Virus record (IMG/VR): IMGVR_UViG_2565956626_000019
Location: 1-23,118 of that record
Direction: 5' to 3' (one strand)
Origin: a virus
Lineage: Duplodnaviria > Heunggongvirae > Uroviricota > Caudoviricetes
Length of the DNA: 23,118 nucleotides
The notes under the pieces are model-generated. The model made no database searches and had not been told where the DNA came from. It saw only the letters and a list, made by a program, of their open reading frames with translations. The translations under genes and the position numbers were made by a program. This document shows positions 3,445 to 7,203 of the stretch, piece after piece (within the stretch, counting starts at the first letter, position 1; the number at the start of each line of letters is the position of its first letter).

Positions 3445-3576
3445 TTAATTTGCTCCAGATACAAGGAATCACCGCAGCATGGCTACGGTTGGAATTTGTT
3501 ACATACCTAAACGGTACGATTGTTGATTTGTACAGTGGGTTTTACGATGCCATTCCACCCATTTGGTGAGGCATTG

Positions 3577-3834
3577 ATGATGTACAGCAAATACGATGAG
3601 GCGCAGTTCCACTTGAGGCTTACACACGAGTTGCACGCTAAGATTAAGCAGCGTGCAAAAATGAATAACAGGTCTATCAATTCCGAAATTGTGGCTACGA
3701 TGGAAGAATCACTCTCCAAACCATCACCTGTAAGCGGGTATCGTGATGAAGAAGAGAGGCTGGCCTCATTAATCTCGGAACGAGTAAAAGAAGTTGCGGC
3801 TGATATCCTTAGAAAAGAAAAAACCCGCGATTAA
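3577..3834 (+). CDS. mnt: Mnt-like ribbon-helix-helix repressor (Arc/MetJ superfamily with C-terminal oligomerisation helix).
   Basis: Residues NNRSINSEIVATMEESLSKPSPVSGYRDEEERLASLI align with recalled P22 Mnt (NGRSMNSELLQIVQDALSKPSPVTGYRNDAERLA). ATG-ATG at 3577-3582 preceded by GGTGAGG 5 nt upstream. The track ORF from 3520 starts at a TTG and is probably an artefactual extension. Confidence 0.8.
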   Translation: MMYSKYDEAQFHLRLTHELHAKIKQRAKMNNRSINSEIVATMEESLSKPSPVSGYRDEEERLASLISERVKEVAADILRKEKTRD

Positions 3835-3850
3835 GCGGGTTTAGTTGGTT
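3811..3850. terminator. Bidirectional intrinsic terminator shared by convergent mnt (+) and the arc-bro-ant-orf73 operon (-).
   Basis: Stem AAACCCGC (3821-3828), loop GATTAA, stem GCGGGTTT (3835-3842). A-run at 3813-3823 gives UUUUUUCUUUU after the hairpin on the minus strand; T-rich TTTAGTTGGTT follows on the plus strand. Overlaps the mnt stop codon. Confidence 0.65.
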
Positions 3851-4070
3851 AGTTATCAAAAAGTCCGTACGTTTCTTCTTCTTCAGGTGTAAGGGGAAGA
3901 ATCTCTACTCTATCTATAGATACCTTTTCAATGTACCCATGAGGTCTACTTAAAATTAAAGCTCTCTCATGCCACAGAACTCCAAGAATGTGATACCTTC
4001 CAGCATCGCCTTTTACCCTGGCTCTTCCTTTGATTCTTGGAGGCATAATGCCATATTTTTTCTTTGCCAT
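3849..4070 (-). CDS. Hypothetical small basic protein with acidic C-terminal tail (73 aa), translationally coupled to the upstream Ant-like gene.
   Basis: ATG at 4070-4068 overlaps the upstream TAA in a TAATG arrangement. Sequence MAKKKYGIMPPRIKGRARVKGD...LTPEEEETYGLFDN. No family recognised. Confidence 0.5.
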   Translation of the reverse strand: MAKKKYGIMPPRIKGRARVKGDAGRYHILGVLWHERALILSRPHGYIEKVSIDRVEILPLTPEEEETYGLFDN

Positions 4071-4798
4071 TATGCAACATTACTCCCATGAATCAGGTGT
4101 TGTAGTGCTTTAACACCTTCCGCATTGTAGCGGAATGCTTCCACCTGTTTGCTGGAATGCGCAGATTTATCCAGGAAGAACTTCCCGTACTGCTCAGTTT
4201 TGAGGTTGTTTGCGTTAGCAATGCGACCAATCTTGTTGGCCGTTACTCCAAGCTGCTCTGCAACCTCCCCTGCTGAGTAGTAATGCTCTTCTATTGCCGG
4301 AAGAGGTATTGCATTAAAACCAACGAGCGGGTTGATTATACTTGCTGCCGCTGTCTGCTTTGCCTCAGGCGCAAGATTTGGCATCAGATCGAACAGATTG
4401 GTAACAGCTTCAACCGTCATTTTCAGTGTTCGCGCCTGGCGATACTCAACAAGTCCACTCGACGATTTACCGCTTTTAATGTGCGCTTCTTGCATACTTT
4501 CAAGTTGGTCTACAAGTGAGCGGCGAACAGCTTTAGATTCACGAGCAGCCACTCGAAGGGCTTGCTTAATTGACATAACAACTTTTTCAGAAGTTGTCTT
4601 GTTTGATTTTTGAACTACGAAAATTTCGTAGTGCTCACCTTCAAGTTCATCCTTAATGCGTGCAATAAAGTCGTTATTGCGAACTTCTTTTTCCCCGCAC
4701 TGTCTACGAGCATGATTGACCATCTCTAACAGGTACTGGCTATCAATGGTTTTATCCGTGACAACGGATCCGATGTTTGCTACATTCTTAAAAGTCAT
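4070..4798 (-). CDS. Antirepressor-like protein with C-terminal KilAC/ANT-type domain.
   Basis: 242 aa from ATG at 4798, with AAGGAA 6 nt upstream. C-terminal segment YYSAGEVAEQLGVTANKIGRIANANNLKTEQYGKFF resembles the antirepressor KilAC DNA-binding motif. The track ORF to 4885 begins at a TTG. Confidence 0.6.
   Translation of the reverse strand: MTFKNVANIGSVVTDKTIDSQYLLEMVNHARRQCGEKEVRNNDFIARIKDELEGEHYEIFVVQKSNKTTSEKVVMSIKQALRVAARESKAVRRSLVDQLESMQEAHIKSGKSSSGLVEYRQARTLKMTVEAVTNLFDLMPNLAPEAKQTAAASIINPLVGFNAIPLPAIEEHYYSAGEVAEQLGVTANKIGRIANANNLKTEQYGKFFLDKSAHSSKQVEAFRYNAEGVKALQHLIHGSNVA
4758..4786 (+). promoter_or_regulatory. Candidate sigma70 promoter on the plus strand, antisense to the ant-like gene start (P_sar-like).
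   Basis: -35 GTGACA at 4758-4763, 17-nt spacer, -10 TACATT at 4781-4786. Predicted start about 4793, reading across the ant-like start codon (4796-4798) and its Shine-Dalgarno (4805-4810). Confidence 0.4.
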
Positions 4799-4866
4799 TA
4801 GGCATTCCTTATGTGGTAGTAAGGGTGTGACATAGGCCGCCAGCAGCACACTGGCGGTTTTCTTTT
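4793..4866 (+). ncRNA. Candidate ~75-nt antisense RNA (sar-like) covering the ant-like ribosome-binding site, ending at a plus-strand intrinsic terminator.
   Basis: Plus-strand terminator: stem CCGCCAG (4837-4843), loop CAGCACA, stem CTGGCGG (4851-4857), then TTTTCTTTT (4858-4866). It lies inside a minus-strand operon and would not terminate minus-strand transcripts. Architecture mirrors P22 sar in the immI region. Confidence 0.45.
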
Positions 4867-4885
4867 GCGCCGTCCTGGGCACCAA

Positions 4886-5512
4886 TCAATGAATCCATTC
4901 CTCGCCGCGAAGTTTTGCCAGCATTGGCTGAGCGTTCTTTACGACAAAATTGTTGGGATCAAGATTCTTCATTTCACGAAGAAGCGATTTCTTGGTTTCT
5001 TCTGACATGTAGCGAGTCTCATATGCAATATCGTAAATCCTTCCTGAAAGCTCAGAACCAATTTGCTTCATTCCTGGGTAGATGTGTTTGCACATTTGTT
5101 GACTCTTCTCCATCCACAATTGTAAGTAGCAGAGATTAACCAGTTCTTCGTCAGTAAACTGTTTTGCAATCGGTGAGCATTCTGCCTGCCGATCCAAAAT
5201 ATCCAGCACCCAGCGGCGGAACTCTTTGGCTACCGGAGTGCGAGCAAACATCGCGATTAGGTGGGCACCGCGTAGTGAGAAAACTCGCACTTTTTTGCGA
5301 TAATTTCCTGAGGTACTCACTTCGAGTACCTGAGTCATTCCGGCGCTAAACTCATCGCTATACTTGTTATAAATCATTGTTACTGCACGGCTATTTGCAT
5401 ATTTAAGTGCAGATGCAATATTAGATGATGTAAACCAAACACCATGCATATCACGGGTGGGCACCAACTCAACTCCGTGGAAGTTGTAATCTGATTTTGC
5501 TACAATATTCAT
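4886..5512 (-). CDS. BRO-N/AntA-like antirepressor-family protein.
   Basis: 208 aa from ATG at 5512, with AAGGAAA 7 nt upstream. N-terminal region ...GVELVPTRDMHGVWFTSSNIASALKYANSRAV... and ...LIAMFARTPVAKEFRRWVLDIL match the BRO-N/KilA-N pattern. Alternative ATGs at 5542 and 5617 lack good SD. Confidence 0.65.
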   Translation of the reverse strand: MNIVAKSDYNFHGVELVPTRDMHGVWFTSSNIASALKYANSRAVTMIYNKYSDEFSAGMTQVLEVSTSGNYRKKVRVFSLRGAHLIAMFARTPVAKEFRRWVLDILDRQAECSPIAKQFTDEELVNLCYLQLWMEKSQQMCKHIYPGMKQIGSELSGRIYDIAYETRYMSEETKKSLLREMKNLDPNNFVVKNAQPMLAKLRGEEWIH

Positions 5513-5585
5513 GTTAGTTTCCTTGCATACGGTTACTGACATAGAGGCCCGGTTTGTGTTCGCGCACTGCCGGGCTTCACTATTT

Positions 5586-5759
5586 TTATTGGATGACAAC
5601 ATCGCCCTTTGCCTCAAGTTTCATCAATAACTCCATTCGATAAGCTATCTCTGCCTGAATTGACCTATGGCATCTTTTTGCTGATTCGCGGATATGTGAA
5701 TCAACCTTTTCTGTAAAACGAACCTGACGCGGCTTGATGGAAGATATCTTTTCAGTCAT
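5586..5759 (-). CDS. arc: Arc-like ribbon-helix-helix repressor, 57 aa (not in the supplied ORF track because it is under 60 aa).
   Basis: My translation: MTEKISSIKPRQVRFTEKVDSHIRESAKRCHRSIQAEIAYRMELLMKLEAKGDVVIQ. Aligns with recalled P22 Arc (..FNLRWPREVLDLVRKVAEENGRSVNSEIYQRVMESFKKEG). AGGAG 6 nt upstream of ATG (5759-5757); TAA at 5588-5586; first gene of the minus-strand operon. Confidence 0.6.
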   Translation of the reverse strand: MTEKISSIKPRQVRFTEKVDSHIRESAKRCHRSIQAEIAYRMELLMKLEAKGDVVIQ

Positions 5760-5858
5760 TATGCACTCCTGTTTTTGAAAAACTCATAATCTCACTTTTT
5801 GTAGTTTGATTATTCACTCACACTCAGTATGAGTCAATGAATTTTTTATGGTGAACTA
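5760..5858. promoter_or_regulatory. Divergent, overlapping promoter/operator region between the arc operon (-) and the CI-like operon (+).
   Basis: Minus-strand promoter: -35 TTGACT (5837-5832), 17-nt spacer, -10 AATAAT (5814-5809). Plus-strand candidate: -35 TTGATT (5806-5811), -10 TATGAG (5828-5833). Palindrome ACTCAgtaTGAGT (5822-5834) and tandem CACTCA repeats (5815-5826) overlap both promoters. Confidence 0.45.
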
Positions 5859-6500
5859 ATGAATTTTGACGATCAATTCCCATCAAGAGTATCTCTGGCA
5901 AGACAGTCCAGGGGTATGACGCAGGCGCAGTTGTCAAAATTAGCTGGTGTTGTTCAACGTCAAATAGCTGCATACGAGGGTGGTGAGGCTAAACCACGGC
6001 TTCGTGTATTGCAGGCATTAGCCAACGCATTAGGCACTACGGCTGAGTGGTTAGCTCTGGGTGAAGGTCAGGGGCCTGGAACAAAAAACGTCATGCCTGA
6101 CGTTCTGGTAAAGCAAATACCAATCCTCAAACTAGATGAAGTTATGCATTACCTAAACACAGGTGAACATTCATCGTCTAGATTTCATCCGGCAATATAC
6201 AATGTTGGTGACTCTGCATTTGCATTGACTATTGAAGGTGAAGCTATGACTACAAGTTCAGGTATTAGCTTTCCCAGAGGATCAGTTGTCACGTTCAGCC
6301 CTCTAGTAAAAGCTAAAAGCAAAGATTATGTAATAGCATCATTGGATAAAGAGCAAATATTGAGCTTCAAGCAGGTTTACATTGGTGAAATAGAGACAAA
6401 CTTAGTATCCCTAAACCCAATGTATCCTAATATTCTTGTTAGAAATGAAGATGTTAGTATTTTGGCAACCGCAGTTTACCTTGAAATCCCGTTGCTTTGA
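5859..6500 (+). CDS. Lambda CI-like repressor (XRE HTH plus S24/LexA-like C-terminal domain) that appears non-cleavable.
   Basis: 213 aa. HTH GMTQAQLSKLAGVVQRQIAAYEGG. C-domain DSAFALTIEGEAM...DYVIASL...SFKQV...LNPMYPNIL aligns with lambda CI DSAFWLEVEGNSM...DFCIARL...TFKKL...LNPQYPMIP. Ser149 equivalent is Ala; Lys192 equivalent retained; Ala-Gly scissile site position reads Asp-Glu. Confidence 0.8.
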   Translation: MNFDDQFPSRVSLARQSRGMTQAQLSKLAGVVQRQIAAYEGGEAKPRLRVLQALANALGTTAEWLALGEGQGPGTKNVMPDVLVKQIPILKLDEVMHYLNTGEHSSSRFHPAIYNVGDSAFALTIEGEAMTTSSGISFPRGSVVTFSPLVKAKSKDYVIASLDKEQILSFKQVYIGEIETNLVSLNPMYPNILVRNEDVSILATAVYLEIPLL

Positions 6501-6564
6501 TATCCTTTAGGAAGCGACACATTATCATCCGGTGTTCTGCTCAAAACTAAGGAGTGGCTACTCA

Positions 6565-7203
6565 ATGAAAAAAATAGATATATATAGCGATACATCAGCC
6601 TATGTCATAGGCTCATTGGGTTTTTTAATTTTTTTTGTTTGGCAGTACCAGTCACTATCTCCAGGATGGAGATTTTTGGGGATGTCTTTGATATCACTTG
6701 GTGCAGGAATAGCAACGCAGGTGTTGATGTATCTCTTTAATGGATGGATCTCAAAAAGAGTTGAGAAAAAAAGAGCTACTTCAATATGTAGAAGCCTAGC
6801 TATTCCAGAAGACTCTACAGATCAGGATGATATTGCAAAATGTTGGCGGTATATGATTGCAAGATACTCAAATGAGTTACTGGCAAACAGACTGTCCGAC
6901 TTAATCGGGATCGTAGTTACCTCTGTTGGAACAATCATCAGTATAGGGATATCAATTTGGTATGTCGGGATGATTGTCTATTTTGTTTGGAATAGAGACT
7001 TCAATGAACCTTCCCTTCTTTTTATACCTTTATTTTTCAGGGTATTAGCATTCATATGTGAGTTATTGCTCTCTTTTTTCTGCAATGTTTTGTTCAACAG
7101 ATACCCAGGTGAAGCAAGAAAGTTTAATAAAAACTATGATGAGTTAAGGAGAACAGATCCTTTTCTATCAAGCAAAGAGTTCCGCGATTCCATTCGCAAT
7201 TAA
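6565..7203 (+). CDS. Multi-pass inner-membrane protein (4-5 predicted TM helices), co-operonic with the CI-like gene; function unknown (exclusion/immunity candidate).
   Basis: 212 aa from ATG at 6565, with AAGGAG 10 nt upstream. Hydrophobic segments AYVIGSLGFLIFFVWQY, FLGMSLISLGAGIATQVLMYLF, LIGIVVTSVGTIISIGISIWYVGMIVYFVW, LLFIPLFFRVLAFICELLLSFFCNVLF. Visibly AT-rich. Track ORF start at 6532 is an extension. Confidence 0.6.
   Translation: MKKIDIYSDTSAYVIGSLGFLIFFVWQYQSLSPGWRFLGMSLISLGAGIATQVLMYLFNGWISKRVEKKRATSICRSLAIPEDSTDQDDIAKCWRYMIARYSNELLANRLSDLIGIVVTSVGTIISIGISIWYVGMIVYFVWNRDFNEPSLLFIPLFFRVLAFICELLLSFFCNVLFNRYPGEARKFNKNYDELRRTDPFLSSKEFRDSIRN

Follow-up and report, generated by a model that had tools for sequence, protein, structure and literature searches.

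The silence of a resident prophage hinges on antirepressors, and for decades the sar RNA of phage P22 has been the textbook case of an antisense RNA that sets a limit on such a protein. The c4 RNA of phages P1 and P7, the basis of their heteroimmunity, comes from the same strand as its target: it is encoded upstream of it, matures by processing of the shared transcript, and binds to sites of partial complementarity. Review literature describes c4 as controlling antirepressor synthesis from ant (icd-ant) and sar as pairing with the ant mRNA, and recent reviews still list sar as the example for this phage group. Here, we analysed the whole stretch of 23,118 nt recorded as IMGVR_UViG_2565956626_000019 (hereafter the window, on which all coordinates are given), which we assigned to a P22-like (Lederbergvirus) prophage of which it is part. 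The element under study is a candidate antisense RNA unit lying over the start of gene X, an antirepressor-type gene of the minus-strand operon in the immI-type region. To judge from the genomes compared, this second antisense unit, unrelated in sequence to sar, is common in enterobacterial prophages. We consider it likely that a cis-antisense RNA of about 75 nt has its complete gene in 4758-4868 and that this RNA limits the translation of gene X by pairing at the gene's ribosome-binding site (RBS).

The predicted antisense unit at the gene X start

Gene X was taken to start at the ATG at 4798, which has a Shine-Dalgarno (SD) sequence TAAGGAA at 4811-4805, 7 nt upstream, and which is also the start given in the RefSeq and GenBank records. 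A mechanical list of open reading frames (ORFs) had proposed instead a TTG at 4885 (4070-4885). That ORF would cross the terminator described below, and the ATG with its SD was preferred.

Opposite the first codons of gene X lies a candidate promoter, GTGACA-17-TACATT, with 9 of the 12 consensus positions. Both this promoter and the terminator downstream were found where a preliminary description of this DNA had placed them, and an extended -10 TG, which that description had not mentioned, came in addition. The start of the RNA was placed by a rule taken from annotated P22 sar, that is, 7 nt after the -10 (Table 1). Extending from there to the U-run, the predicted RNA carries the complements of both the start codon and the SD of gene X, and would be antisense to the two sites as had been proposed. 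It holds no small ORF, its sole AUG being followed by two codons.

The terminator had been described as a plus-strand intrinsic terminator with a 7-bp GC stem, located inside a minus-strand operon, between a BRO-N gene and the target. As a matter of fact, the stem has ten pairs, with a core of seven Watson-Crick pairs (six of them G-C) and two G-U pairs and one A-U pair at the base; it closes a loop of 7 nt and is followed by the U-run TTTTCTTTT at 4858-4866. On the minus strand, the sequence after the hairpin is CUAUGUCAC, which has no U-run, so that termination is predicted on the plus strand only. This one-way plus-strand terminator stands inside the minus-strand operon, in the gap of 87 nt that separates gene X from the upstream gene encoding BRO-N and P22_AR_C domains.

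Conservation of the unit across enterobacterial prophages

Relatives of gene X were collected from 80 viral contigs (69-100% amino-acid identity), of which 60 were distinct. Among these 60, the stretch from the -35 to the U-run was the best conserved part of the locus. Within gene X, third codon positions had a diversity of 0.11-0.12 over the initial 50 nt versus 0.17-0.51 over the remainder, and the non-coding stretch 4809-4868, with a diversity of 0.08-0.14, fell below most coding sequence. Beyond the U-run, the DNA alternated among several unrelated upstream genes, which places a mosaic joint directly after the terminator. Salmonella phage SPN3UB has the same terminator, together with TCGACA-17-TGcTACATT inside the first part of a gene for which BLASTP gave no alignment with gene X.

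We then used the terminator alone as a query of IMG/VR, with the pattern GCCGCCAG-N4-9-CTGGCGGTTTT, and retrieved at least 119 stretches representing at least 83 distinct sequences. A promoter of at least the quality of that in the window was looked for in an interval of 55 nt, starting 60-115 nt upstream of the hairpin. Among the matches listed, 74 of the 83 distinct terminator sequences had one, about 2.3 being expected (chance 0.028 each), and 70 of 83 had it with the TG motif, for which about 0.5 were expected (chance 0.006 each). The nine listed matches devoid of a promoter were unrelated terminators from other organisms. A match in a firmicutes metagenome-assembled genome (L212), with neither a -35 nor a start codon, was a chance match. 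The RNAs predicted in relatives were 61-79 nt long. These comparisons show that selection keeps promoter, spacing and terminator together as one unit.

The codons under the promoter were examined in 63 distinct 5' regions with an extended -10. TGnTAnAnT was invariant in the alignment. The codon under TGn was GCA in 60 of the 63, GCA making up 30% of alanine codons gene-wide, and the other three (TCA, ACA and CCA) kept the CA while changing the residue. The codon before it was always nTA (GTA 42, TTA 16, ATA 4, CTA 1), the residue being V, L or I. In 62 of 63 regions, the spacing between an xxGACA hexamer and the -10 was exactly 17 nt; the exception, L114, was a mis-hit of the regular expression, scored TCGACA-17-TAAAGT. 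The -35 always fell on a GTC valine codon, GTC accounting for 17% of valine codons gene-wide, and the promoter was positioned 12 to 27 nt into the target gene. In L202, the sequence upstream of the -10 was non-homologous (a KilA-N gene), yet ATGACA was present at 17 nt. One leader class had a different, stronger promoter, TTGACT-16-GATAAT, at the same place. Read from these codons, selection at the promoter is on the nucleotides and not on the encoded residues.

Short leader peptides (MTSKNVAN, MQQSSSTAVNVA, MTKLTLAN, MTALKIAD) were seen fused to unrelated antirepressor domains. This puts a module boundary inside the coding sequence, just past the -35, and the N-terminal peptide of the targets is in effect dictated by the antisense promoter.

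Mosaicism was extensive, as the 104 loci examined held at least 11 classes of target-gene body, 11 classes of leader and 31 classes of DNA beyond the terminator, in 52 combinations. The targets combine N-terminal ORF6N, Rha, Bro-N or KilA-N domains with C-terminal ANT/KilAC or related domains, that is, a shuffled antirepressor repertoire, and every target faced by the unit in the loci compared was predicted to be an antirepressor-type protein. Single-linkage clustering of the proteins put all targets in one cluster because of this domain shuffling; it was rejected, and a stricter coverage was used instead. Among the GTDB species representatives, the complete unit was found in Citrobacter, Serratia, Pantoea, Rahnella, Lonsdalea, Buttiauxella, Rosenbergiella, Intestinirhabdus, Scandinavium and Dryocola, a spread of about 10 genera of Enterobacterales. 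Gifsy-2 and P22 were checked for the cassette, which was absent in both. Incidentally, two loci (L206 and L218) of assembly CACSKA01, labelled 'Chryseobacterium sp. 18061', had complete cassettes of enterobacterial type, which suggests that this assembly is contaminated or mislabelled.

Mechanism and alternative readings

Production of the RNA, its action by pairing and the negative sign of its effect would follow the analogy with P22 sar. From the extended -10 sigma-70 promoter, which occupies the strand opposite to codons 1-14 of gene X, RNA polymerase would run past the complements of that gene's start codon and SD and end at the terminator just short of the upstream antirepressor gene. The RNA would then pair with the operon mRNA over the RBS of gene X, as sar does in P22, and block initiation of translation of the second antirepressor-type protein; the duplex would perhaps be exposed to RNase III. 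The output of gene X would be capped in this way whenever the antirepressor operon is transcribed. In P22, Psar is stimulated by transcription from Pant.

Several results weigh against this reading. In the window taken alone, the promoter is not beyond chance, a scan of 3500-6500 having given 4 promoter-like sites versus 6.2 expected; the terminators in the same scan were 6 versus 2.6 expected. The designation of gene X as a putative antirepressor has family annotation as its sole basis, namely its match to PHROG 1726 'anti-repressor' (E = 1e-100), with no Pfam domain. Many of the sequences compared are related, so that the counts given above are not independent and overstate the number of events; the diversity of classes is a stronger argument than these counts. 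In the library that we searched, including the work on enterohaemorrhagic E. coli (EHEC) anti-small RNAs (anti-sRNAs) and on Pas sRNAs, no antisense RNA was described at this site.

Folding also brought its share of reservations. The RNA 4793-4868 was predicted to fold at -25.1 kcal/mol (z = -2.5) into two hairpins, an imperfect one at the 5' end and the terminator. The 5' hairpin was predicted in most leader classes but was weak (mean z = -1.0), and as the leader classes cannot be aligned, this domain was folded per sequence only; support for the predicted 5' structure is only modest. The terminator hairpin was robust in the comparison, with a nearly invariant stem and a loop free in sequence and length (5-7 nt). 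One relative had a compensated C-G to G-U change in the stem, and with this single compensated pair covariation in the terminator was almost absent. Covariation is uninformative here because the stem barely varies and because the retrieval pattern itself required the stem. Last, raw folding was 2.4-7.2 kcal/mol better on the plus strand than on its complement in 8 of 8 variants, but the plus strand is rich in G+T (58%), which accounts for this advantage, and the shuffle-corrected mean z was -3.35 on both strands. Thus, strand asymmetry was rejected as evidence for a plus-strand RNA. Since the corrected structure scores are equal on both strands, it is the U-run and the promoter that assign the strand.

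One alternative is that the RNA is made but acts mainly via convergent transcription, by promoter occlusion or by collision of polymerases with Pant-driven or late transcription, or else that the unit insulates the upstream antirepressor gene against stray antisense transcription. The promoter would indeed drive transcription against the operon and against late transcription heading for the tailspike gene, and the terminator stands just before the upstream gene in every context. Yet collisions would have little room in an overlap of only about 75 nt, P22 sar is described as pairing with the ant mRNA, and the RNA always spans the SD and the start codon, whatever the leader or the promoter distance, as pairing at the RBS requires. 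We hold this alternative to be unlikely. Once composition is allowed for, the hairpin is as stable on the mRNA strand, and it might also be an mRNA-level element for processing, stability or translational coupling, or a relic of a module boundary kept by recombination, with the promoter hexamers a by-product of a conserved N-terminal peptide. The mosaic breakpoints do coincide with the end of the U-run, and a short N-terminal motif, NVA....VV, is common to otherwise different genes. What makes this quite improbable in our view is that the residues of the motif vary while the promoter nucleotides are fixed (nTA nCA, GTC, 17-nt spacing), that an unrelated leader class has its different and better promoter at the same place, and that the plus-strand T-run, which on the mRNA is an A-run before the hairpin with no known role there, is nevertheless always kept.

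In principle, the inverted repeat GCCGCCAG...CTGGCGGC could function as DNA instead of as an RNA structure, being the operator of a dimeric regulator or a site of recombination. Its near invariance across unrelated leaders is unusual for a mere terminator. However, the half-sites stand at a variable 5 to 7 nt from each other with a spacer free in sequence, the U-run always follows the repeat, and the compensated change noted above alters both arms; moreover, relatives in which the N-terminus is another one carry a different hairpin at this position. A DNA site is thus very hard to reconcile with the data, and we give it hardly any credit. Pairing of an antisense RNA at the RBS of gene X stays the reading that we favour.

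A wider proposal is put forward with low confidence. The promoter-leader-terminator unit, of about 110 bp, could be a portable 'antisense guard' cassette swapped among unrelated antirepressor genes, the near-invariant terminator hairpin serving as recombination joint. As the 3' segment is common to all leader classes, an RNA from one prophage could also pair with the antirepressor mRNA of another in the same cell. With the upstream sar added, this might make up a two-tier specificity network setting which prophages induce one another.

The operon, its sar homologue and comparison with known systems

The minus-strand operon runs from a Pant-like promoter through an Arc-like gene, the BRO-N + P22_AR_C gene, gene X and an ORF of 73 amino acids (aa) to a terminator, beyond which lies the tailspike gene (Table 1). 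The 'ant-like' label that the target of the antisense RNA had received agrees with its family annotation (PHROG 1726), but the P22-Ant signature, that is, BRO-N together with P22_AR_C, belongs to the gene upstream. As this upstream gene has a sar homologue of its own, the gene X unit would target a second antirepressor-type gene.

Table 1. Features of the antirepressor operon and of its two predicted antisense units, in window coordinates
Feature	Position	Strand	Basis or remark
-35 hexamer GTGACA	4758..4763	+	Within gene X codons 12-14 (..GTT GTC ACG..)
Extended -10 TGcTACATT (TG 4778-4779, hexamer TACATT 4781-4786)	4778..4786	+	Within gene X codons 5-7 (AAT GTA GCA)
Predicted antisense RNA, ~72-76 nt	4793..4868	+	Predicted start A4793 (range 4792-4794); 3' end in U-run 4862-4868
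CAT, complement of gene X start codon, 3-5 nt into the RNA	4796..4798	+	Sequence
TTCCTTA, complement of gene X SD TAAGGAA, in 5' arm of first hairpin	4805..4811	+	Sequence and fold
Imperfect 5' hairpin of predicted RNA	4794..4831	+	Predicted fold
Intrinsic terminator (stem 4834-4843 with 4851-4860, loop 4844-4850, U-run 4858-4866)	4834..4866	+	Terminator scan
Gene X, 242 aa, target of predicted antisense RNA	4070..4798	-	PHROG 1726
BRO-N + P22_AR_C antirepressor homologue, upstream of gene X	4886..5512	-	Domain and PHROG annotation
sar homologue unit (promoter TGGAAG-17-TGcTACAAT 5478-5506, predicted RNA 5513-5587)	5478..5587	+	Fold, alignment, model R1
Arc-like ribbon-helix-helix gene, first gene of operon	5586..5759	-	Domain and family annotation
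Pant-like operon promoter TTGACT-17-AATAAT	5809..5837	-	Motif scan
Operon-end terminator, AAACCCGC...GCGGGTTT + T-run	3842-3821	-	Terminator scan

The RNA of the sar homologue would start directly after the CAT of the BRO-N gene, as in P22, and end at the arc stop codon. It has two predicted hairpins (fold z = -6.2) and can be aligned with P22 sar, from which it has diverged. The Rfam sar model did not detect it in the window; the positive controls of this model scored 97.8 bits for P22 and 64.2 bits for an intermediate relative, L129. We built a covariance model, R1, from P22 sar and 10 diverged relatives, under which the homologue scored 91.7 bits. Against SymR, it gave a weak, sub-threshold match. 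In the records examined, neither this RNA nor that of the gene X unit was annotated.

Using R1, 66 sar-type RNAs were found in 100 cassette-bearing loci. These RNAs covary strongly, with 95.8% of cells paired and 11 of 18 pairs changed on both sides, and 0 of 500 shuffles scored as high. A sar-type RNA lay on the same strand, 559-940 nt (median 653) past the cassette terminator, in 63 of 92 cassette loci, and the distance in the window was 650 nt. In L129 (4177-4248 and 4896-4920), the order was arc, a sar validated by Rfam, ant, the cassette and a Rha-type gene. Each antirepressor gene in the operon of the window appears to have an antisense RNA, two in all, and the tandem of sar-type RNA and cassette indicates that two antirepressor-type genes, each with its own antisense RNA, would be the usual architecture. 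RF00262 recognised 1 of the 7 loci tested, versus 66 in 100 by R1, which points out that the Rfam sar family is too narrow; its model misses most sar-type RNAs of the loci compared.

The nearest phage records were Escherichia phage JEP4 and Klebsiella phage phiKp_30. Two IMG/VR contigs were identical over the region, which was matched in 373 of 5426 complete E. coli genomes, and many complete E. coli genomes, including that of strain 55989, have prophages 98-99% identical. In strain 55989, the matching stretch (NC_011748 2,671,812-2,672,713) is 98.7% identical, and the unit falls between EC55989_RS13370 and RS13375. Downstream, the operon-end terminator has an A-run on its opposite side and may terminate in both directions, and a second Arc/Mnt-like ribbon-helix-helix gene (3520-3834, plus strand) runs convergently towards the operon end. 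A repressor gene of the self-cleaving, CI/C2/LexA-like type, with helix-turn-helix (HTH) and Peptidase_S24 domains (5859-6500, plus strand), diverges from the Pant-like promoter. In E. coli 55989, an Arc/Mnt-family gene stands in its place. It looks like a swapped regulator of the antirepressor operon, and the HTH + Peptidase_S24 neighbour hints that Pant in this phage is under direct SOS control. Farther along, an ORF of 223 aa (6532-7203, plus strand) with several hydrophobic stretches and no Pfam match occupies the position that sieA (superinfection exclusion) has in P22.

That another antirepressor is faced by an antisense RNA will not surprise the specialist. What we believe to be useful is the breadth of the unit, its codon-embedded promoter, its portability and its tandem arrangement with sar. 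As the promoter overlaps codons, it can be knocked out cleanly by synonymous changes. Published transcriptomes contain antirepressor mRNAs in uninduced Salmonella lysogens, for which their authors suggest post-transcriptional control. The cassette would be a concrete mechanism for such control of antirepressors in the prophages that carry it; Gifsy-2 is without it.

As to family membership, the gene X unit was unmatched by RF00262, both in the whole window at the gathering threshold of 43 bits and on 4600-5000 at E <= 10. R1 gave no match on 4793-4868 at E <= 10 with filters off, and direct alignment with P22 sar showed no meaningful similarity. The Rfam families ctRNA_p42d, SgrS and NsiR4 gave chance-level matches to the terminator only and were discarded.

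Among the known systems, lambda OOP and E. coli SymR share with the gene X unit the compact promoter-to-terminator design opposite the target mRNA, and SymR also covers the 5' untranslated region and RBS of its target. They differ from it in their targets, cII and the SymE toxin, and in having no sequence relationship with it; besides, OOP overlaps the 3' end of its target. The EHEC prophage anti-sRNAs AgvB and AsxR likewise combine a conserved 3' region, terminator included, with a variable 5' region, but their place is downstream of PR', their targets are host sRNAs, reached in trans, and no antirepressor lies opposite them. The c4 RNA of P1 and P7 resembles the RNA predicted here in being small and in preventing synthesis of an antirepressor through base pairing around the RBS, and in both cases sequence classes could define specificity, the family of the gene X unit having 11 leader classes. 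In contrast to c4, the gene X unit has its promoter and terminator opposite the operon strand, and its RNA is fully complementary to the target.

The closest likeness is to P22 sar (RF00262), as the preliminary description had proposed; the likeness stood for the architecture and for the probable mechanism, and did not extend to the sequence family, neither Rfam sar nor R1 matching the unit. In both cases, a cis-antisense RNA of about 70 nt, here a predicted one, faces a target assigned to the antirepressor class in an arc-ant type operon. An opposite-strand extended -10 (TGc) sigma-70 promoter sits in the first codons of the target, the RNA has its start placed 7 nt after the -10 and covers the target RBS, and of its two predicted hairpins the second is a same-strand terminator in the upstream intergenic region, yielding an RNA in the range of 60-80 nt. 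The differences are as clear. Members of the sar family lie between arc and ant and end at the 3' end of arc, whereas the gene X unit lies at the ant-gene X junction, where it would target a second, different antirepressor-type gene. Its predicted RNA includes the complement of the start codon, just outside of which P22 sar starts, and the unit has the better -35 and ends in a terminator with a classical U-run. It also coexists with a true sar homologue in one operon. On this comparison, the gene X unit reads as sar-like by design, and not by detectable descent.

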